Assembly: GCA_964620085.1 (NCBI GenBank)
Contig: CAZUIQ010000006.1
Span: 1-39,926 of the forward strand
Direction: 5' to 3'
DNA: 39,926 bases
Source of the DNA: an uncultured Candidatus Saccharibacteria bacterium
Lineage (GTDB): Bacteria > Patescibacteriota > Minisyncoccia > Phycocordibacterales > UBA1006
Shown here: positions 1,548-34,306 of the stretch, in pieces
How positions within the stretch are numbered: position 1 is the first letter of the stretch
Layout: each line of letters opens with the position of its first letter
Program-made: the position numbers and the translations under genes
Notes under the pieces: model-generated
Told to the model about the DNA's origin: nothing
Seen by the model: only the letters and a program-made list of their open reading frames with translations
Databases searched by the model: none

Positions 1548-1811
1548 CTAAGACTTATCTAAATCGTCAAATAACTCTTTTGCTGTTTTATACGCCTTAC
1601 CATTTTTGATTGCATCAGCAATTTGCGCATCCCAAAAAGACCTTGGTTTTCCAGACAAAAGCATTGTGGGCTTAAACGGCAATCCTTTATCCACAACCAC
1701 CTGATTCAAAAACATTTTAATAGCGGAAGACATATCCAATCCCAAAGAAGCCAGCATCTTCGCCGCTTGAGCTTTTACTTTTGCATCGATTCGAATATTT
1801 AAAGTAGTCAT
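1548..1811 (-). CDS. type II antitoxin, RelB/DinJ family
   Basis: N-terminal ribbon-helix-helix pattern (TLNIRIDAKVKAQAAKMLASLGLDMSSAIKMFLNQVV) typical of DinJ/RelB; toxin-like ORF immediately downstream. Confidence 0.8.
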   Translation of the reverse strand: MTTLNIRIDAKVKAQAAKMLASLGLDMSSAIKMFLNQVVVDKGLPFKPTMLLSGKPRSFWDAQIADAIKNGKAYKTAKELFDDLDKS

Positions 1812-6709: not shown

Positions 6710-6718
6710 TTATCCACA
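6710..6718 (+). promoter_or_regulatory. perfect DnaA-box consensus TTATCCACA
   Basis: Exact 9-mer 11 nt upstream of the infA -35 box. Confidence 0.4.
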
Positions 6719-6792: not shown

Positions 6793-8058
6793 TTATAATG
6801 CTACAACTTCTAGTTGATGAGGGTTTCTAGGAAGAATCCGTCTCCAGAACGGTTGTACCTGTAGCTTGTAAGTAGCTATTTCTGGAATTTGATCCATAGA
6901 AGATCTTGCTTCTTTTCGAGAAATGCCCAAAATTGCCTCCTTTATCTTCTGCGTATCCAGAAGACCAACCACCGTACCTGTTCCGGTAATACGTATTTGA
7001 ATTTTCTGTGGAATAGGCTGACCTGCGACTATGGCACTTGTCAGAATTGACAGATCCTCAAAGTTTTTTAGAGTAAGCTTTATATTCTTTTCCACACCAA
7101 GACTATCACCTATGATTCGGGCTATTTCTGAACGATGTACTAATAAGATAGTGACCGTCTGATTTGCGATGACATGTACCCCATCTTCATGTTTAGGATC
7201 AAGTACTATGGTTACAGGATTTTCTGGAAGCGTCAGAGGTAGTGCAATCATGGTATCTGGAACTTGCTCAGAAAGTCGTGCAATGAGGGTTTCTGTACGT
7301 GAAAACTCATTTTTCAAATCTTCAGCAGCTCTCGTAATCATCTCCGGATCAGCAATTGCATCTAAATCATCAGACCCTCCTGTTATTTCTGTCACAGAAC
7401 GAATGGTAACCCCTTCAAGTGTTTTTGAGGTCTTTGAAAAAGTAAAATCATCTAAAGCACTATTTCCATAGATACCCGCATCTTTGGCAATTACCCCAAC
7501 ATCTATTTGTCCGGGATCTTTCAAACCTTTTGGTGGGATGGTAACTGTTTTTGAGATAAGATATTTTTTACCAGCACTTGAGATGATTTCTGTTTTTGCA
7601 GAGATAGTTTTTGCACTCGTATGAGTATTATATAATCTCACGGTACCCGATGCCTGCGCTTCACTTGGGGCGCGACCTGTGATAGGAATAACTTTTTCAC
7701 TCGTAAATGTTTTTGTTGCGGTTGCAAAAAATACCCCATCCGTATTTCGAGATTGCGTTAACGTATACATTTTATCTACGGTACCCGAAAACTGTTTTGG
7801 TGTAACTGCCACCTTGGTATACGTAAATAGTCCACCTATACCCATACCGAGCGCAGTGATACAAATCATAGCAATAATCCACAGGAAACACCCTGAACGA
7901 TTTCGTACAGGGTTTTCATAACTTTTAAAGACCACAGGATCTTCCTGTTCTGATACTGGCTGTATTTCAAATTTTTGAGGTACTTCTAAAACCTGTTTTT
8001 TTACAACAGTTTTTTTCGTCACAATCATGTCATTCATCATGTGTTTTTTATCAGGCAT
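6793..8058 (-). CDS. hypothetical single-pass membrane protein (421 aa)
   Basis: Short cytoplasmic N-terminus, one hydrophobic helix (FLWIIAMICITALGMGIGGLF), then a large Thr/Ser/Ile-rich domain; 10 nt downstream of the preceding gene. Confidence 0.6.
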   Translation of the reverse strand: MPDKKHMMNDMIVTKKTVVKKQVLEVPQKFEIQPVSEQEDPVVFKSYENPVRNRSGCFLWIIAMICITALGMGIGGLFTYTKVAVTPKQFSGTVDKMYTLTQSRNTDGVFFATATKTFTSEKVIPITGRAPSEAQASGTVRLYNTHTSAKTISAKTEIISSAGKKYLISKTVTIPPKGLKDPGQIDVGVIAKDAGIYGNSALDDFTFSKTSKTLEGVTIRSVTEITGGSDDLDAIADPEMITRAAEDLKNEFSRTETLIARLSEQVPDTMIALPLTLPENPVTIVLDPKHEDGVHVIANQTVTILLVHRSEIARIIGDSLGVEKNIKLTLKNFEDLSILTSAIVAGQPIPQKIQIRITGTGTVVGLLDTQKIKEAILGISRKEARSSMDQIPEIATYKLQVQPFWRRILPRNPHQLEVVAL

Positions 8059-22455: not shown

Positions 22456-23256
22456 TTATAAAAATAACGTAATAGCATTCCCCACTCTTTTAAACTTATA
22501 ATCTGGAAACTTTTGTTTCAATGTTCTTTCATACATATCCGATCTCAACTTTCCTTTATCTTTTTCCACCCCTCTCTCTAAGGTAAAGTCTGCACCAATA
22601 TGCTTCATCAAAGCCGACAACGCGTCTTTATTATCCATAAGACTTGCAAGTTCTTGTTGATTATCCACAAACTGATTTAACGAAAATCTATTTTCACTAT
22701 GATAGGCATTATCAAATCCAAGAAGACGCTGTTTGAGATCGAAGGGCCTTTTCCCTGACTCTTCAATTATTACTTCCCCGTTTTTTATACGAATAGATTT
22801 TTTCCGATCATCTACTTGCTTAGTATGAGAAAAGTTATCAAAGATATGATTTCCTTGTTCTGTTTTACTTTTAAGGAAATTTTTAAATTCATCTAGCTCA
22901 CTCACTCGTAATTCTTCCTCAGCACCAAAAAAGGTTATTTTATTTATTCTTTCATGTTTTCTTGCAGTATTCACCAAAATAACAAGATTCTCGATAATAT
23001 ACTTATAGACTGCAAGACCTTTATTAGTGATAAGCATTCCATGTTTCGTACCAAAACCAAGATTCCAATACTTATCTTCATTTCTCTTGATAAGATGAAA
23101 ATCATACTCAAGCCCATCAATAGTTTCTTCTTTTAAAAACTCAACCATGCCAAAACTATTATTTATTTTTTTAGTCACCCCATTCTCAAGTACCGATTCT
23201 TCAATATCAGGTTTTGGCTTTTTATCAAATAATTTTTCGAATGTTTTACTATACAT
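22456..23256 (-). CDS. hypothetical protein (266 aa), tandem paralog B
   Basis: Paralog of 21695-22408; has its own terminator/promoter cassette. Confidence 0.6.
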   Translation of the reverse strand: MYSKTFEKLFDKKPKPDIEESVLENGVTKKINNSFGMVEFLKEETIDGLEYDFHLIKRNEDKYWNLGFGTKHGMLITNKGLAVYKYIIENLVILVNTARKHERINKITFFGAEEELRVSELDEFKNFLKSKTEQGNHIFDNFSHTKQVDDRKKSIRIKNGEVIIEESGKRPFDLKQRLLGFDNAYHSENRFSLNQFVDNQQELASLMDNKDALSALMKHIGADFTLERGVEKDKGKLRSDMYERTLKQKFPDYKFKRVGNAITLFL

Positions 23257-26738: not shown

Positions 26739-29084
26739 TTATACTTCTTTTTGTCGAAATACTAACTTTTTTACAAGCTCGTTACAGATAAAATACAGCC
26801 CAGTAACTCCTACAAGGATACTTACCTGTATTCCCTCTAGTGGTACGAGATGAAAGACTGACCCAAAAGACATATACGGTAATCCGATCGCAATTACATA
26901 GCAAGTCATGAGTACTACACCCAGGATTTTTGACATCTTTGGTGACTTGAAAATAGAAAGTTCTGAACGAAGTGAAAATACCAACGTAAGTTCCGCAAGA
27001 ACCGAAAATACAAACCATCCCGTTCGCAAAACAGTAATATCATATCCCTTGAATGCAAAGAAGAATATGAAATCAAACACCGAACTTACTATTGCAAAGA
27101 TTACAATATACTTAAAGAATTTTCTTGCTTCATCACGAATCGGTTTCTGAATAATGCTTTGTGAAACAGTATCCATAATTAAAAACATCAATGGCACATC
27201 CGTAAGAAGATTATTCAAAAGAATTTGAATCGGGAGCATGGGAATTTGCTGCCACACCACCACCACTGCTGTAAGCGAAATAAGCGTCCCGATATTTCCC
27301 GTAAGCGTGCAGAGTAAATACGTTCGAATGTGCGCAAACGCTTTGCGACTCATAGTAATAGCACTTATGATTGGTGAGAGACTTTTTTCAAGAAGAATCA
27401 CATCCCCTGACTGCCGCGCCACATCACTTGCATTATTTACTACAAATCCAATATCAGCACGTTTCAAAGCCAGTGCATCATTAATACCCTCTCCAAGGAA
27501 TCCTACTACTCCATGATCCAAATGCTCATTAATTAATTCAGATTTTTGCTCCGGTTTACATCGAGCATACACCACGTATTTTTCTATGTCATTATTATTT
27601 TCGGACTTCCAGGTATCCATTGAAAATACTGCATTCTTGTCAATTTTTATATCAAGTTTATTTCCAATATATTCTGCAACTGACAAACTATCACCAGTAA
27701 CAATCTTTACATCTACAGACAAATCCTTGATCGATGTATAGAGCTCTTTTGCATCACTTTTAAGTGGATCTTCAAATAATACCGCACCAAGCAATGAGTA
27801 ACCTTTACTCATTGCATCTTTTTTTGCAAATGCAATTACCCGCAAACCTTTTTGTTCTGCTTCGAGGCACTGTGTTTGAAAATCGTTTTCATTCGCGTCA
27901 CATGATGCACATACTCGCGCATACTGTCCTCGAATAATTTCTGATCCGTCGATAAGGGTATACACCGAAAATCCTCGTGCGATCTGAAATGGTGAGAGCG
28001 CAAGTTCCTGAGGACTACTTTTAGTTTCTCCAAGGTATTTACCAATAGCTTGGTCAAAAACATTATCCATTGGAGTACGCTCATAGAGGCCTTCCGAAAT
28101 AACTGAAAGACTCGAAGTGAGATCTTTGTGATCTACAATACTACTTACCTTTAGATTATTTTCGGTTACTGTCCCAGTCTTATCTGTAAAGAAATAATTC
28201 ATACTTCCAAGATTTTGAAGCACCGATAATTTCTTTACAATCACATTATTTTTTGCCAAAGCTAAAGCTTCACGAGTAAGGATAATGGTAACTATAAGAG
28301 GTAGCGATTCTGGAACAACTCCTACAAGCATCGCAATCGCATACAATACATATTCAGATCCGGTAAGACTATGTACTACTAATACATTCAATATAAATAC
28401 TGCAGCCAAACATAGTACGGTTAATATGAGAATATATTTACTCACTGAATGAATGAAGGATTCAAAACTATTACTCTTTGTCATTTTTGAAATTTTTTCA
28501 GCGTACATTAACAAAGAACTTTGTTTTCCAACAGCAATAATTTGTCCGGTAAGATTTCCTTGTACAATACTGACTCCGGCAAATAATGTATCACCCACAA
28601 CAAACGCTTTCGGGAGAGTTTCTCCTGTGCGCACTGACTCGTCGACAAATAAATCCTTAGCATCTCGAATAATCATATCCGCTACGATCACATCGCCGGG
28701 TTCTCCAAACACAATGTCCCCCATCACGATGTCGGTGCTTGGAATTTTTACAAGCAGGCCATCACGCCGTACCATAACTGTGTGCGCAATAAGTTTTTCC
28801 AAAGCCTGGGTACTTTTATTGGCTCGAAATTCTTGGAAGAATCCAATAATGGCATTAATTCCCGCGATACTGAAAAATATGATCCCGTCTAACGAATGAT
28901 GCAACAGCATAGATAAAATCCCTGAAATAATAAGCAGTGCAAAGAAAAATGATACAATCTGATTTTTAAAAGTAACCAACACAAGCTCTGCATCCGACAC
29001 ATGATGAGCAGGAGTATTTTTAGGAAGCTGGCTTACTTCTTCCGTAGTTAGTCCGGTAAGCAGATCTGTATTGGTTGGATTCAT
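26739..29084 (-). CDS. cation-transporting P-type ATPase
   Basis: Phosphorylation motif DKTGTVTEN, actuator motif TGET, VTGD, hinge GEGINDALALKRADIGF, about 10 transmembrane segments. Confidence 0.9.
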   Translation of the reverse strand: MNPTNTDLLTGLTTEEVSQLPKNTPAHHVSDAELVLVTFKNQIVSFFFALLIISGILSMLLHHSLDGIIFFSIAGINAIIGFFQEFRANKSTQALEKLIAHTVMVRRDGLLVKIPSTDIVMGDIVFGEPGDVIVADMIIRDAKDLFVDESVRTGETLPKAFVVGDTLFAGVSIVQGNLTGQIIAVGKQSSLLMYAEKISKMTKSNSFESFIHSVSKYILILTVLCLAAVFILNVLVVHSLTGSEYVLYAIAMLVGVVPESLPLIVTIILTREALALAKNNVIVKKLSVLQNLGSMNYFFTDKTGTVTENNLKVSSIVDHKDLTSSLSVISEGLYERTPMDNVFDQAIGKYLGETKSSPQELALSPFQIARGFSVYTLIDGSEIIRGQYARVCASCDANENDFQTQCLEAEQKGLRVIAFAKKDAMSKGYSLLGAVLFEDPLKSDAKELYTSIKDLSVDVKIVTGDSLSVAEYIGNKLDIKIDKNAVFSMDTWKSENNNDIEKYVVYARCKPEQKSELINEHLDHGVVGFLGEGINDALALKRADIGFVVNNASDVARQSGDVILLEKSLSPIISAITMSRKAFAHIRTYLLCTLTGNIGTLISLTAVVVVWQQIPMLPIQILLNNLLTDVPLMFLIMDTVSQSIIQKPIRDEARKFFKYIVIFAIVSSVFDFIFFFAFKGYDITVLRTGWFVFSVLAELTLVFSLRSELSIFKSPKMSKILGVVLMTCYVIAIGLPYMSFGSVFHLVPLEGIQVSILVGVTGLYFICNELVKKLVFRQKEV

Positions 29085-29143: not shown

Positions 29144-29836
29144 TTAATTCCAACCCTTTGCTTCTAGGGCATTTCGCGCGGCAGCTGTTTCGGCTTCTTG
29201 TTTCGAAGACCCCTTTCCTTCAGCAATTTTTGTATCACGGAAGTAAATTCCTACGGTGAAGATTTTGTCATGATCAGGACCGGTATCATGAAGTACTTTG
29301 TATGACGGAGTCACACCTTCGTGTTCTTGCGATTTTTCCTGAACATACGATTTCGCATCACGCCACAATCCATGTTTGATAATATTTTCAAGTTCTGGAA
29401 GAAGGTGTGCGTGAATAAATTCTTTTGCTGCATCATATCCTTGATCAAGGTATAACGCCCCAGTAAATGCTTCGAACGTGTTCGCAAGAATGTAGGCTCG
29501 TGCCTTGCCCATATCTTTTGCCTCACCTTTTGAGAGTAAGAGGTAATTATCAAATCCAAGGTTTTTAGAGGCATCAGAAATTGTGTTCGTGTTCACTAAC
29601 GATGCACGAAACGCCGTCAGCTCTCCTTCTGGTTTGTCACTATACTTAGTGTATAAATAGTCAGTCACAATGAGTTCCATGACGGCATCCCCTAGAAATT
29701 CCAATCGCTCGTTGTGCCCCATTCCCAATCCTGCATTCTCGTTTAAATAGGATCTATGCAAAAACGCCTGCTTGAGCAAGTCTTTGTTTTTGAACTCAAT
29801 ATTTAGCTTTTTTTCTAATTCTGAGAAGTCTTTCAT
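29144..29836 (-). CDS. rnc: ribonuclease III
   Basis: Signature ERLEFLGDAV; C-terminal dsRNA-binding domain (GPDHDKIFTV...GSSKQEAETAAA). Confidence 0.95.
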   Translation of the reverse strand: MKDFSELEKKLNIEFKNKDLLKQAFLHRSYLNENAGLGMGHNERLEFLGDAVMELIVTDYLYTKYSDKPEGELTAFRASLVNTNTISDASKNLGFDNYLLLSKGEAKDMGKARAYILANTFEAFTGALYLDQGYDAAKEFIHAHLLPELENIIKHGLWRDAKSYVQEKSQEHEGVTPSYKVLHDTGPDHDKIFTVGIYFRDTKIAEGKGSSKQEAETAAARNALEAKGWN

Positions 29837-29869
29837 GTAAAAATCATCTACTCTTTATATTACTTTTAT

Positions 29870-29898
29870 AGTATACGCTATACAGCCCTACTTTTCAA
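29870..29898 (-). promoter_or_regulatory. rnc promoter TTGAAA-17-TATACT
   Basis: -35 at 29893-29898, -10 at 29870-29875, about 33 nt before the rnc ATG. Confidence 0.55.
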
Positions 29899-29901
29899 GG
29901 C

Positions 29902-29936
29902 AAAAAAAATCCCCCGGCTTATACAGCTTGGGGGGA
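29902..29936 (-). terminator. strong intrinsic terminator inside the ORF-free locus
   Basis: TCCCCC...GGGGGA stem with an inner GC pairing, followed by T8. Confidence 0.75.
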
Positions 29937-29971
29937 CCTTATTTGTATTTATGTTAAAGAAACAATTACTT
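29902..29971 (-). ncRNA. candidate small RNA of about 70 nt (promoter-to-terminator prediction only)
   Basis: Consensus promoter 29978-30006 followed by terminator 29902-29936, with no start codon between them. Confidence 0.3.
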
Positions 29972-29977
29972 GTTCTT

Positions 29978-30006
29978 AGTATATACTATTGGTAATACAT
30001 TGTCAA
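29978..30006 (-). promoter_or_regulatory. orphan consensus promoter TTGACA-17-TATACT (no ORF downstream)
   Basis: -35 at 30001-30006, -10 at 29978-29983; terminator 29902-29936 lies about 70 nt downstream. Confidence 0.5.
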
Positions 30007-30027
30007 GTTTTTAAATGTGGATAAAGT
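30000..30027 (+). promoter_or_regulatory. orphan promoter TTGTCA-16-TAAAGT (no ORF downstream)
   Basis: Its -35 overlaps the -35 of the opposite-strand promoter; terminator 30103-30136 lies about 100 nt downstream. Confidence 0.4.
30016..30024 (-). promoter_or_regulatory. perfect DnaA-box consensus (TGTGGATAA on plus = TTATCCACA on minus)
   Basis: Exact 9-mer inside the longest non-coding region; 7/9 matches at 30207-30215, 30229-30237 and 30258-30266. Confidence 0.4.
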
Positions 30028-30033
30028 AAATTC

Positions 30034-30136
30034 CCTACAAAACCTTTTAAAAAGGGGTTTTGGTCGCCAATTGTGGTATCTATTTTAATTTATAAGATAA
30101 AACCACCTGATACCGCAGGTGGATTCTTGTTTTTTT
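30034..30136 (+). ncRNA. candidate small RNA of about 100 nt (promoter-to-terminator prediction only)
   Basis: Promoter 30000-30027 followed by terminator 30103-30136; no plausible ORF. Confidence 0.25.
30103..30136 (+). terminator. intrinsic terminator inside the ORF-free locus (partly bidirectional)
   Basis: CCACCTG-ATACCG-CAGGTGG followed by ATTCTTGTTTTTTT; a T4 follows it on the minus strand. Confidence 0.7.
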
Positions 30137-30225
30137 GTGTACTGATAAAAAATTAATTTATCAGCGCTTTGCTTCTAGGGTATAAGCTCGGCGGTATATT
30201 TTTGTATTCACCACAAGATACTTAA

Positions 30226-30276
30226 GACTTATCCAATACTGGGCTTAAATATAATATGTATCCAGAGGACTTATCC
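30226..30276. repeat. direct repeat GACTTATCC x2 (30226-30234 and 30268-30276)
   Basis: Exact 9-mers 42 nt apart; each contains TTATCC, the DnaA-box half. Confidence 0.6.
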
Positions 30277-30333
30277 TTTTATTCGTTTTCACGAAAGCAT
30301 GGGCCTACAACAGTTAAAGAATACTCTGTTAAC

Positions 30334-30362
30334 AGCATAGCACATATAGTTTAATATGTCAA
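30334..30362 (-). promoter_or_regulatory. orphan promoter TTGACA-17-TATGCT (no ORF downstream)
   Basis: -35 at 30357-30362, immediately after hairpin 30362-30400; -10 at 30334-30339. Confidence 0.4.
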
Positions 30363-30400
30363 GGACTAAAAATACCTCCTAGGGGAAGGTATTTTTAGTC
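30362..30400 (-). other. 14-bp perfect hairpin immediately after the nusB-nudix stop codon
   Basis: GGACTAAAAATACC-N11-GGTATTTTTAGTCC; no T-run follows on the minus strand. Confidence 0.6.
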
Positions 30401-31306
30401 CTACATCGCCATGATCTTTTCAACTGCCATCGCCATTAACTGTGTTACATCGTCATACATCGTAAGATCTGAAATTTCCGACATATCAAACCATTTTGCA
30501 TCCTTGAGTCCCCCTGAGGTTGATTCCAAAACTAGTGGAACATAGTCAGCTTGAGCTAGGAAGTAGTACACATGCTTTTTTACCGGACCTCGCTCTGGAT
30601 GGTGTGCCACATATTCATTTTCTCCAAGCTTTTCGATAATTTTAATATCAAGACTTATTTCCTCCTTAAGTTCACGAATCGTTCCTTCTTCTGCACTTTC
30701 CCCTTCTTCGATAGAACCTTTTGAGAGTGTCCAGTATCCAAATACATCAAATACCATTGCAAATCGAACTGTTCCAGATTCGTCTTTAGAGAACACTACT
30801 GCGCCTCCTTTCATATCTACAGGATACTGCGAAGGATCAAGTGCCACATGTGGCTTTTTCTTTTTAGAAACCTGCTCCTTTCCTGGTTCTCCAATTTCCT
30901 TATAAATAGCACCAAGTACCCCGTTAATAAACGGACCTGACTTTTCTCCACCAAACGCCTTACCCAATTCAATAGCCTCGTTAATCGCAACTTTTGGAGG
31001 CACGTTTTCACGATCCCCAAAAAGGAGTTCATACAATCCCAATCGCAAAATGTTACGATCAACAACCGATATTTTTTCAATCGGCCAATCGGGTGCAGCT
31101 TTTTCAATAATCTCATCAAGTACCTTTCTCTTGTTTACTACCCCTTTCGTTGTTTCCTTGATAAATGAAGGATCATCGATACCCGCACTAAACTCACCGA
31201 GACAATGCTCGAGAGCCAAATCTGCACGCGACTCATCAAACCCGTTAAAATCGAGTTCGAAGAGGGCTTGCATAATAATTGAACGTGCAACGTGTCGATG
31301 TGACAT
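30401..31306 (-). CDS. nusB: NusB-like antitermination domain fused to a Nudix hydrolase domain
   Basis: N-terminal half RHVARSIIMQALFELDF ... NEAIELGKAFGGEKSGPFINGVLG (NusB). C-terminal half has the Nudix box GSIEEGESAEEGTIRELKEEISL (GX5EX7REUXEEXGU with the last G as S). The ATG at 31306 is used; the longer track ORF would overlap rpmF. Confidence 0.8.
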   Translation of the reverse strand: MSHRHVARSIIMQALFELDFNGFDESRADLALEHCLGEFSAGIDDPSFIKETTKGVVNKRKVLDEIIEKAAPDWPIEKISVVDRNILRLGLYELLFGDRENVPPKVAINEAIELGKAFGGEKSGPFINGVLGAIYKEIGEPGKEQVSKKKKPHVALDPSQYPVDMKGGAVVFSKDESGTVRFAMVFDVFGYWTLSKGSIEEGESAEEGTIRELKEEISLDIKIIEKLGENEYVAHHPERGPVKKHVYYFLAQADYVPLVLESTSGGLKDAKWFDMSEISDLTMYDDVTQLMAMAVEKIMAM

Positions 31307-32474: not shown

Positions 32475-32852
32475 CTATTTCGTTTCGAATAATGTCTTAT
32501 CATATGCCGTAAGTAACCACTTTTTTGCTTTTCCATACCAATTTAAACTAACAGTGGCATCGAATTGTTCCGATGATAACTTGATACGATTTGGAGATAT
32601 TGATACTACGTCACACTGATCTAATATTTCTTGTATTTTGCCAATCACTTCAGGATGTTTTTTCACAATCTTTGCATATCCAGTATTTTCATCACCCCAA
32701 AACAAATCAATGCTGCCAATCGATTTATAGTAGAATGCATTCCTTATTTCTCCAGATTTATTTTCAAGCATAAAAATCTCGGCTCCTGCACCTTTTGGGC
32801 CTTCATAAATATCACCAAATTCACCAACTCCTAAGTACTTAATATTTTGCAT
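32475..32852 (-). CDS. hypothetical protein (125 aa)
   Basis: ATG ORF 6 nt downstream of TGcTAGGAT; the GYAKIVKKHPEV segment faintly resembles phage-associated barnase/EndoU-like nuclease families, which I could not verify. Confidence 0.45.
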   Translation of the reverse strand: MQNIKYLGVGEFGDIYEGPKGAGAEIFMLENKSGEIRNAFYYKSIGSIDLFWGDENTGYAKIVKKHPEVIGKIQEILDQCDVVSISPNRIKLSSEQFDATVSLNWYGKAKKWLLTAYDKTLFETK

Positions 32853-32858
32853 CGACCA

Positions 32859-32867
32859 ATCCTAGCA
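32859..32867 (-). promoter_or_regulatory. extended -10 TGcTAGGAT, 6 nt before the ATG of the 125-aa ORF
   Basis: Sequence match. Confidence 0.4.
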
Positions 32868-32925
32868 AACCAAGATAAATTCCTGATAAACTTTTTTCCA
32901 GAAACATTTATCTTCTCCTTGCACT

Positions 32926-32957
32926 AAAAAAGCGCGGTTTGGGGAGCGAACCGGGGT
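32926..32957 (-). terminator. possible terminator after ORF 32968-33516
   Basis: CGGTT-N9-AACCG followed by CGCTTTTTT. Confidence 0.4.
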
Positions 32958-32967
32958 TTTTGTTAAA

Positions 32968-33516
32968 TCAGAGGAAATGAGGTTTAAGCGCAAGCAAGCC
33001 TTTTTTTTGCTTCACCTCTGCTTCAAGCTTTTCTAGTTCTGTACTCAATCTCAATTTCTCCTCGCTGATTTTGTTTGTGAAAAATTCTAGCCAAATTTTT
33101 GTCGTGCTAGATTTCGGGAAATTAGTTACTTGACCATTATCAACCGTCCAAATGGGAAGAACCTTACGCTGACCATCCTTAATTACTAACGGAATGCCGT
33201 TTTCCTCTTCCACAGGCAAGGTTGTAATATTAATCCATGTTCTCTTGTGTCCGCCAAACTGCTGCGTCTCTTGATTAACTGGCATAGAAACATGTGCCAT
33301 AAGATTTGGTAACTCCATGGACTCCAGCGCCTTGAGCATATCCCATGTTCCAGTCTCATCAAATACTAATGGTGCCTCATCTACTACACCGTACATTCTA
33401 AAACCTCCCATGGTCTCAGAATCAAATAATACTGAAGGTTGTTTTGGACGGTGCCAAAAGGGTAACTCATGGTGAGTATCAGCGGAACCAACGGTCCCAT
33501 AAAGTGCTATTTTCAT
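32968..33516 (-). CDS. hypothetical protein (182 aa)
   Basis: ATG ORF with a duplicated promoter-leader cassette upstream and a C-terminal coiled-coil tail. Confidence 0.5.
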   Translation of the reverse strand: MKIALYGTVGSADTHHELPFWHRPKQPSVLFDSETMGGFRMYGVVDEAPLVFDETGTWDMLKALESMELPNLMAHVSMPVNQETQQFGGHKRTWINITTLPVEEENGIPLVIKDGQRKVLPIWTVDNGQVTNFPKSSTTKIWLEFFTNKISEEKLRLSTELEKLEAEVKQKKGLLALKPHFL

Positions 33517-33547
33517 AATTCATTTTTTAAGTGAAACAATTTCACTT

Positions 33548-33576
33548 ATATAATCATATTAATATCATTTCGTCAA
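33548..33576 (-). promoter_or_regulatory. promoter TTGACG-17-TTATAT (cassette copy 1)
   Basis: The blocks GTTGACGAAATG and TATGATTATAT are identical to those in 34337-34365. Confidence 0.55.
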
Positions 33577-33593
33577 CTCGTACTCCTTGTACT

Positions 33594-33629
33594 AAAAAAG
33601 CCTCATCCATTCTATGAACAAGGCTTTTT
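33594..33629 (-). terminator. intrinsic terminator after ORF 33635-34306
   Basis: Long imperfect hairpin AAGCC...GGCTT followed by T6. Confidence 0.6.
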
Positions 33630-33634
33630 AAAAA

Positions 33635-34306
33635 TCATGATTTGTTGAGAATTTCGATAAATTTTTCAGTATTCTCTCTTGAATTAAGAACTTCTTTTAT
33701 CAAGTAGCCCCAAATATTTCCTGCTCCGTCTTTCTCTCCAAAAACGATCTTGTTTACAAATTCTATAGGAAACTTAATCCCCATATATCCATGAAAATCA
33801 TCAAACTCGAATTGAGTATTTTTCCATGTTCCCTCATTAACCCAACCTCTCTGTTGTTCATATTTGGATTGATAAGTTGAATCGACAAATTTCTCTCCCT
33901 TTGAGTTGAAACTATGTAAGAAAGTATATACCTTACCAGAATGTAACCTTTGTCTTGCAAAGCCAAACATATAATCCCAATCCGGTTTACGTACACTAAA
34001 ATACGGAGCAGCTTGGTGACAACACCAATTGTACACATCGTAGACACATACATTAAAATAAATATTTTCATAGACGTTGTCTTTGGTGCACATTTGCCGA
34101 TCTTCATCCTTGAAGTGAACAACTTCAGTATTTGAAAAAAGAAATTGCAAATTTTCCAATTCAACATGTCTAAAGAAATTATTTTGTGCAATAAATTCGA
34201 ATGGGTCAACTTTCTGATCTGTTGTAAAACTACAATAACCAAGTTTAAATTTTCCCTCCTGAGGTTTTTCCTTAGGTATAAATAAAGCATCATAAAGACC
34301 TTTCAT
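33635..34306 (-). CDS. hypothetical protein (223 aa)
   Basis: ATG ORF; Trp/Phe/Tyr-rich; same promoter-leader cassette as 32968-33516. Confidence 0.5.
   Translation of the reverse strand: MKGLYDALFIPKEKPQEGKFKLGYCSFTTDQKVDPFEFIAQNNFFRHVELENLQFLFSNTEVVHFKDEDRQMCTKDNVYENIYFNVCVYDVYNWCCHQAAPYFSVRKPDWDYMFGFARQRLHSGKVYTFLHSFNSKGEKFVDSTYQSKYEQQRGWVNEGTWKNTQFEFDDFHGYMGIKFPIEFVNKIVFGEKDGAGNIWGYLIKEVLNSRENTEKFIEILNKS

Follow-up and report, generated by a model that had tools for sequence, protein, structure and literature searches.

Locus organization

The window, by which we mean the whole stretch of 39,926 nucleotides analyzed here, contains a 564-nt gap (29837-30400) between rnc (29144-29836, minus strand) and a gene for a NusB-Nudix fusion protein (stop codon 30401-30403), and it is the content of this gap that concerns us. 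Nearly all genes of the window lie on the minus strand, and the true start of the NusB-Nudix gene is probably at 31306, as homologous fusion proteins have 301 aa. As an earlier note on this DNA had claimed, the gap is the largest in the window that is free of open reading frames (ORFs), other gaps of ~600 nt being filled by small genes. The only ORFs of at least 25 aa inside it are on the plus strand, at 30073-30156 (GTG start, 27 aa) and 30256-30354 (32 aa); the latter agrees in length with the longest ATG frame of the note (32 codons), and the former passes through a terminator hairpin. The best 80 genomic relatives of the flanking gene carry names of the Paceibacteria/'Nomurabacteria' type, and the window genome is that of a low G+C member of the Patescibacteria.

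Every sequence element listed in the earlier note was present at its coordinates, but the note had missed that nearly all of them are oriented along the minus strand. When read on this gene strand they form an ordered series: the nusB-Nudix terminator, promoter P1, an RNA of ~230 nt, a bidirectional terminator, a DnaA box with promoter P2, an RNA of ~70 nt that ends in a G/C stem and U8, and promoter P3 followed by rnc (Table 1).

Table 1. Features predicted in and beside the gap, listed in the direction of the minus strand
Feature	Position	Strand	Description
nusB-Nudix terminator hairpin	30362..30402	-	16-nt perfect arms (100% complementary); overlaps stop codon; inner stem and U-run
Promoter P1	30334..30362	-	TTGACA-17-TATGCT, 10/12; spacer ends TGC, extended -10 (TG)
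Predicted small RNA 1, ~230 nt	30095..30330	-	P1 to terminator; transcription start near 30327-30330, 3' end near 30095
Conserved core of small RNA 1	30210..30330	-	31 exact nt colinear with L003
Conserved block AGGATAAGTC (repeat copy 1)	30268..30277	-	Common to L003
Conserved block TTAAGCCCAG	30239..30248	-	19 nt after block 1 in the window, 18 nt in L003
Conserved block GATAAGTCTTA (repeat copy 2)	30223..30233	-	9/10 complementary to rnc codons 2-5
A/U hairpin	30142..30164	-	Predicted in every fold; inside ~75-nt window-specific stretch, absent from L003
Bidirectional intrinsic terminator	30103..30122	both	7-bp G/C-rich stem; minus-strand reading ends small RNA 1; z = -3.4
Perfect DnaA box TTATCCACA	30016..30024	-	9 nt upstream of P2 -35
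Weak rightward promoter-like site	30000..30027	+	TTGTCA-16-TAAAGT, 9/12, chance level
Promoter P2	29978..30006	-	TTGACA-17-TATACT, 11/12
Predicted small RNA 2, ~70 nt	29902..29971	-	P2 to G/C stem (29902-29936) and U8
Promoter P3 for rnc	29870..29898	-	TTGAAA-17-TATACT, 10/12; directly after U8 terminator

Promoters and terminators

Promoter sites scoring at least 10/12 number 23 in the whole window, and three of them lie inside the gap, which makes up 1.4% of the window, all three on the gene strand. At a threshold of 9/12 the 2.5 kb scanned contained 7 sites vs. 6.4 +/- 2.8 in shuffled sequences. Of the three orphan promoters reported in the earlier note, the two leftward ones (11/12, and 10/12 with the TG extension) were upheld; the rightward one, and with it the rightward RNA that it was thought to start, was not, as sites of its 9/12 score are as frequent in shuffles. 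The promoter of rnc itself, P3 (29898-29870, minus strand, 10/12), which lies 33 nt ahead of the rnc start codon, had been omitted from that list.

A scan for terminators returned 6, with 1.5 +/- 1.3 expected. The hairpin closing nusB-Nudix, previously described as 14 bp long, is indeed there, with arms that we measured at 16 nt and found to be perfect; it folds at -25.7 kcal/mol (z = -6.4 relative to shuffles). Both of the strong terminators noted before are likewise present, the stem plus U8 at 29902-29936 and the stem at 30103-30122 (z = -3.4), and a 72-nt RNA that includes the former folds at -22.2 kcal/mol (z = -3.6). A long-range inverted repeat (29902-29924 with 30180-30202), consisting of an 8-nt perfect core and A/T runs, is at chance level.

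The gap as an insert in a variable slot

The loci of relatives were numbered L001-L174, and spacers were counted in the 140 loci in which both gene ends could be aligned. The order nusB-Nudix then rnc is conserved in all 80 of the genomic relatives examined, and the spacer between the two genes is shorter than 100 nt in 119 of the 140 loci and reaches 200 nt or more in only 9. In the closest relative, L161, whose NusB-Nudix protein is 97% identical, the rnc ATG lies 3 nt after the nusB-Nudix stop codon; the spacer is 3-5 nt in L166-L168 and L172-L174, and in L001, whose RNase III is 96.5% identical, it is ~70 nt and holds unrelated G+C-rich hairpins. Because the spacer is usually below 100 nt among the 140 relatives and only 3 nt in the closest of them, these alignments identify the 564 nt as a lineage-specific insert in a variable slot of an otherwise tightly linked gene pair of Paceibacteria-type Patescibacteria. 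The earlier reading had not recognized the entire gap as inserted DNA that close relatives lack.

The slot carries different cargo in different relatives. An orphan, highly divergent NUDIX ORF lies in it, right after NusB-Nudix, in L002 (1755-2516), L162 (4076-4816), L005, L011, and L165 (3505-4080). This cargo has its own promoter (TTGACATATTTAATATAATATGCTAATAT in L002, which is near P1; a P1-like promoter heads the cargo in both L002 and L162), a trailing terminator and then a TTGAAAA promoter for rnc, and the same arrangement of a terminator followed by TTGAAAA ahead of rnc was seen in L003, L002, L162, and L005. In L056 the slot is occupied by a gene for a 23S-rRNA-IVS protein, and in L164 and L171 by unrelated non-coding DNA.

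The window (29144-31306) and L001 (6069-7737) are 96.5% identical in RNase III and 84.7% identical in NusB-Nudix at the protein level, with similar identities at third codon positions (0.60 and 0.67), a mosaic that suggests recombination or relaxed constraint beside the slot. No terminal inverted repeat bounds the insert and no other copy of it was found in the window or the 174 loci, as would be looked for in an insertion sequence or a miniature inverted-repeat transposable element (MITE), and the phage and plasmid collections contained no match to it. By inspection, neither a dif/Xer site nor an integron attC site nor a MITE fits the insert, which has no terminal repeats or extra copies.

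A predicted small RNA unit shared with a distant relative

The upstream half of the gap is homologous to the 308-nt spacer of L003, in which positions 7003-7197 are the counterpart of small RNA 1. With the window gap alone as query, nhmmer returned this syntenic L003 gap as the best match in 1.6 Mb (E = 0.026). The two loci share, in the same order, the promoter (TTGACATATTAAACTATATGTGCTATGCT in the window and TTGACTTTTTAAACAAAGTGTGCTAAACT in L003, the latter reading TTGACT-17-TAAACT with the same TGTGCTA), AACAGA at the predicted start, RGCCCR, a hairpin, AGGATAAGTC, TTAAGCCCAG, GATAAGTCTTA, the A-run CAAAAAAACA, a terminator that sits at the corresponding position behind this same A-run and differs in sequence, and finally the rnc promoter. 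Three blocks of 10-11 nt are exact in both, and hairpins occupy the same positions with different sequences; the one after RGCCCR, for example, is UUCGU-GAAA-ACGAA in the window and UUGUUGC-UUUAU-GCAGCAA in L003. An extra hairpin lies between TTAAGCCCAG and GATAAGTCTTA in L003 only, and a helix UUAAG/CUUA(A/G) was predicted independently in the window and L003 RNAs. The AT hairpin that the earlier note had placed at 30142-30164 was confirmed.

Identity between the window and L003 at the fourfold-degenerate sites of nusB-Nudix and rnc amounts to 28-33%, a level that means saturation, so that neutral DNA should no longer be alignable between them. The colinear chain of exact matches, with the promoter and the A-run excluded, is 31 nt long, a length reached by none of ~200,000 random windows from related genomes (maximum 27). 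Indels between the blocks are not multiples of three, and no reading frame is open in both loci. The combination of invariant blocks with diverged hairpins at conserved positions points to long divergence under selection, since a recent transfer would look more uniform. Taken together, these comparisons establish, at the level of sequence, homology of unit 1 (P1 to terminator) under constraint.

Unit 1 has its own promoter and an intrinsic terminator on one strand and no shared ORF, as a stand-alone small RNA gene would, and it is the only unit of the gap that is conserved above the neutral level. For the unit starting at the third promoter of the earlier note (30362-30334, minus strand), its reading as a small non-coding RNA therefore gained support: one distant relative has the promoter, three blocks, and the terminator at the corresponding position. 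In the alignment of syntenic rnc-nusB spacers, which the note had proposed as a check, sequence blocks and hairpin positions were conserved in L003 and the region was missing from the closest relatives.

The explanation that we favor, with somewhat more confidence than doubt, is that the gap is a lineage-specific, self-contained insert which carries the gene of a small RNA belonging to an undescribed, patchily distributed family, probably together with a second RNA. From the anatomy of the insert we infer that it is transcribed and how it might act. It would terminate the upstream nusB-Nudix operon, express a small RNA of ~230 nt from the strong extended -10 promoter P1 to the intrinsic terminator, probably express a second RNA of ~70 nt from P2 to the U8 terminator, and restart the transcription of rnc from a promoter of its own, P3. 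The invariant parts of small RNA 1 are RGCCCR, AGGAUAAGUC, UUAAGCCCAG, and GAUAAGUCUUA, which are possibly single-stranded with variable hairpins between them, and the RNA would act in trans through these blocks, either by base pairing or by protein binding. Because the core is not unusually stable, the blocks are more likely to be exposed recognition sites than structural elements.

Several observations weigh against this explanation. The conserved core folds no better than shuffled sequences (z = -1.2 and -0.7), there are two instances only, the window and L003, and hence no real test of covariation, and a DNA-level role of the conserved blocks is conceivable in principle. Searches for further homologues with nhmmer and blastn over 169-174 loci, two viral pattern scans, and the phage and plasmid collections recovered only L003. 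In a rough tree the window groups with L001 and L163, and L003 groups with L004, and all of these sisters are without the element; neither carrier shares it with its nearest relatives, so that it is dispensable. For unit 2 (30095-29900, which includes P2 and the U8 terminator), the 174 loci, the phages, and the plasmids yielded no homologue, and it may be a second, younger unit. For the leftward unit from 30006 to 29902 proposed earlier, the promoter and terminator signals are strong and the homologue is lacking, which leaves that unit plausible but unsupported.

The cargo found in relatives raises the alternative that the spacer is a decaying remnant of a cargo gene, either an orphan Nudix gene or a homing-type HNH endonuclease gene, reduced to its promoter/terminator shell and without present function. 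The slot does hold ORF cargo in a similar shell in the five loci with a NUDIX ORF (L002, L162, L005, L011, and L165), and a phage HNH endonuclease ORF, L170 726-1058, contains the pattern GGATAAGTC-N19-TTAAGCCCAG in frame (VDKS...LSPVID). However, neither a tblastn search with the Nudix cargo proteins nor a tblastx search of the gap gave more than noise, nine frames translated with stops masked (six of the window gap and three forward frames of L003) matched no Pfam family at E up to 10, and neutral DNA could not have remained alignable where synonymous sites are saturated. The L170 match is single, with ~10 chance matches expected in the collection by a rough estimate. We consider a decaying remnant to be a quite unlikely explanation of the gap. 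Of its two candidate sources, a Nudix cargo gene was rejected for lack of any similarity, and the endonuclease relic was put down to chance, given that the DKS and LSP residues follow from the pattern as such and that the scanned frames carry no Pfam signal.

A type I toxin-antitoxin or small-protein locus was weighed as well, in which the hydrophobic peptide encoded on the plus strand at 30073-30156 (MVSILIYKIKPPDTAGGFLFFCVLIKN) would be paired with an overlapping antisense RNA. Back-to-back promoters and a bidirectional terminator are what such a locus might contain, and the 27-codon, partly hydrophobic ORF does exist. Nevertheless, this ORF has a GTG start, lacks a suitably spaced Shine-Dalgarno sequence, has a promoter of only 9/12, and crosses the terminator, so that the transcript would end before the stop codon; moreover, it lies in the part of the gap that has no homologue, and the conserved part is closed in every shared frame. 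A locus of this kind is highly improbable.

DnaA boxes and the origin question

The perfect DnaA box of the gap is one of 4 in the window (1687-1695, 6710-6718, 22661-22669, and 30016-30024) vs. 0.57 expected, a number that 0 of 100 shuffles reached. No other box in the gap comes within one mismatch of the consensus, and boxes with at most one mismatch are not enriched in the window (16 vs. 12.8 expected). Among the DnaA boxes of the earlier note the perfect one stands, and two of its three '7/9' boxes turned out to be merely copies of the GGATAAGTC repeat. The direct repeat reported there is itself non-random: GACTTATCC occurs twice in the gap and three times in the window vs. 0.26 expected. 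What is conserved is the motif GATAAGTC, which is not a DnaA box, L003 having TTATC and not the CACA half. We also observed that a 10/12 promoter on the minus strand (6698-6670), ahead of an IF-1-like ORF, has the box at 6710 placed 12 nt upstream of its -35, mirroring the arrangement at P2.

The earlier note had suggested regulation by DnaA and, alternatively, an oriC-like or DnaA-titrating region. A DnaA-binding region in this broad sense, be it a replication origin, a titrating locus, or a set of DnaA-regulated promoters, would account for the perfect box 9 nt upstream of the P2 -35 and for the window-wide excess of such boxes. It is at odds with the finding that a single box in the gap has no more than one mismatch, with the absence of the CACA half of the conserved repeat in L003, and with the cumulative GC skew, which is steadily negative across the gap and shows no switch. 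Among the 20 window ORFs scanned against Pfam, neither dnaA nor dnaN turned up; the matches were to an SMC-family ATPase, a PBECR1-type nuclease, alaS, pepF, mnmA, mltG, rpoA and the like. The region is, furthermore, missing from the closest relatives, which is impossible for an origin. We assign this reading next to no probability, and neither proposal of the earlier note survives; regulation of P2 by DnaA through the single box is possible.

A possible link to rnc

The block GAUAAGUCUUA can pair with rnc codons 2-5 (AAGACUUCUC) at 9 of 10 positions (-9.2 kcal/mol; 29821-29833 with 30223-30233). For pairing with this block the rnc start region ranks first among 44 start regions in the window and second among 18 in L003, in which G-U pairs accommodate two synonymous changes in rnc. 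Random 11-mers pair as well in 0.8% of cases in the window and in 14% in L003, and part of the block is predicted to lie inside a helix of the small RNA itself. Duplex energies computed for the whole RNA against all start regions, by a method that permitted unrealistic loops, placed rnc 26th of 44 in the window and 14th of 18 in L003. We regard the pairing between GAUAAGUCUUA and rnc as a weak lead, to be taken as a hypothesis. Separately, pairing is also possible between another segment, CUUUCGUG, and CAUGAAAG, the region of the rnc start codon.

A more ambitious version of the small RNA explanation would make small RNA 1 the representative of a new class of accessory regulatory RNAs in the Candidate Phyla Radiation (CPR), which spreads by homologous recombination in the slot and controls the synthesis of RNase III through pairing of GAUAAGUCUU with rnc codons 2-5. 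We consider this extended version quite unlikely. If it were true, some strains would have gained an extra, RNA-based control over their main double-strand RNase.

Alternatively, the insert could serve purely as a cis-acting control of rnc, insulating the gene from the nusB-Nudix operon and providing a leader or attenuator RNA whose read-through product is cleaved by RNase III or sensed in another way. Such a role would agree with the position of the element directly upstream of rnc in both carriers, with the terminator and TTGAAA promoter found ahead of rnc in every relative with cargo, with the complementarity of GAUAAGUCUUA to rnc and the ranks of 1/44 and 2/18 described above, and with the 16-bp perfect hairpin at 30362-30402, which would form double-stranded RNA. 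On the other hand, P1 is separated from rnc by two or three intrinsic terminators and by a promoter of rnc's own, rnc is expressed in the absence of the element in relatives that have Nudix cargo or no spacer, the longest stem of 16 bp falls short of the ~20 bp typical of an RNase III substrate, and the pairing statistics are weak in L003, where 14% of random 11-mers do equally well. A purely cis-acting role is unlikely in our judgment, and we retain the trans-acting small RNA as the preferred interpretation.

The rnc promoter of L003 (TTGAAA-17-TATAAC, within 7200-7240) would put the start of transcription on or beside the conserved rnc ATG at 7235, and the L003 rnc mRNA may be leaderless. 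The public annotation of L003 rnc begins 5 codons further upstream, inside this promoter.

Search for known RNA families

The Rfam scan that the earlier note had proposed was run with the Rfam 15 covariance models over the whole window, and it returned 0 matches at gathering thresholds. When the gap and its L003 homologue were searched at E up to 10, only chance-level matches to small RNAs and leaders appeared, at 10-25 bits vs. gathering scores of 39-100, and ARAGORN found no tRNA or tmRNA. The inability of the earlier reader to recognize RNase P, tmRNA, SRP, or 6S RNA by eye is borne out by the models. RNase P was considered on account of AGGAUAAGUCC, which resembles CR-I, and AUACAAAAAUAUACCGCC, which resembles J11/12, and was ruled out: there is no model match at E up to 10, AUACAAAAAUAUACCGCC is absent from L003, and the L003 RNA is far too short. 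For 6S, SRP, tmRNA, fragments of 5S or 23S rRNA, and riboswitches, nothing matched.

The 9-mer UUCUUUAAC (minus strand) occurs at 30313-30321 and 29953-29961, i.e., 10-20 nt past both predicted transcription starts, and adjoins nusB. It resembles the boxA core CUCUUUAAC, the binding site of NusB/NusE. Antitermination of the boxA type through this 9-mer was rejected, as UUCUUUAAC is not kept in L003.

Other variable features of the neighborhood

Further variable slots were noticed at 32475-34306 and 26739-29084 in the backbone formed by DnaE, RNase HII, L32, NusB-Nudix, rnc, and SMC. One further slot contains a PBECR1-type nuclease ORF and two ORFs without a Pfam match, in place of which L163 has a PemK toxin. 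Between rnc and SMC, the window, L163, and L172/L173 encode a P-type ATPase that is not found there in L162, L165, and L166. The spacer between RNase HII and L32 (31572-31725) contains three G+C-rich perfect hairpins (CCCTCCTCC...GGAGGAG, CCCCTCC...GGAGGGG, and CCGCCGGCTGGCGG) that have no Rfam match, and hairpins like these occupy the nusB-Nudix/rnc slot in L001 and L163. Elsewhere in the window, the stretch 1359-1811 has two short ORFs of 57 and 87 aa on the minus strand. By eye they resemble a toxin of the RelE/YafQ type paired with an antitoxin of the DinJ/RelB type, and a perfect DnaA box falls within the antitoxin ORF.

Significance and comparison with known systems

The hosts of this element are ultra-small, host-dependent bacteria with reduced genomes, and our literature search surfaced no experimentally studied regulatory RNA in Patescibacteria beyond the TIGR guide RNAs. 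A small RNA unit that is kept across saturated divergence, yet gained and lost between near-identical strains, would be a concrete candidate for regulation in this group. The slot itself would be a recombination site within a conserved backbone, with small cargo that varies between strains, and it may be useful for studying the flexibility of reduced genomes. The find is a modest one, with two members predicted from sequence, and its general interest is moderate to low.

The leader of rnc in E. coli is autoregulatory, RNase III cleaving a stem in its own 5' untranslated region. The locus described here resembles that leader in having a structured RNA directly upstream of rnc and a block complementary to the first rnc codons; it differs in that terminators and a dedicated promoter intervene, no long double-stranded stem is present, most relatives are without it, and there is no sequence similarity. 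The loci oriC, datA, and DARS are clusters of DnaA boxes. With these the gap shares one perfect consensus box, whereas a cluster, a skew switch, a nearby dnaA, and conservation are all missing here.

Within the CPR bacteria, the TIGR arrays of TIGR-Tas systems offer another point of comparison; they require many regular units and an adjacent Nop-domain gene (PMC12045711). The present locus is similarly non-coding, comes from the CPR, has short repeated motifs, and ends in a Rho-independent terminator. Unlike in an array, the motif occurs twice, its copies being separated by 42 nt in the window and by 61 nt in L003, and no Nop-domain match was found among the 10 neighboring ORFs scanned.

A parallel also lies with the small RNA genes of bacteria in general, which have a sigma-70-type promoter and an intrinsic terminator and reside in variable intergenic slots. 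The predicted gene stands apart from these in matching none of the 4227 Rfam families, in having two members, and in belonging to an uncultured Patescibacteria host. In its build it is nonetheless like them: a stand-alone unit of ~230 nt, it combines a strong promoter with an A-rich stretch and a Rho-independent terminator, is composed of short invariant blocks between variable hairpins, and is distributed patchily among close relatives.

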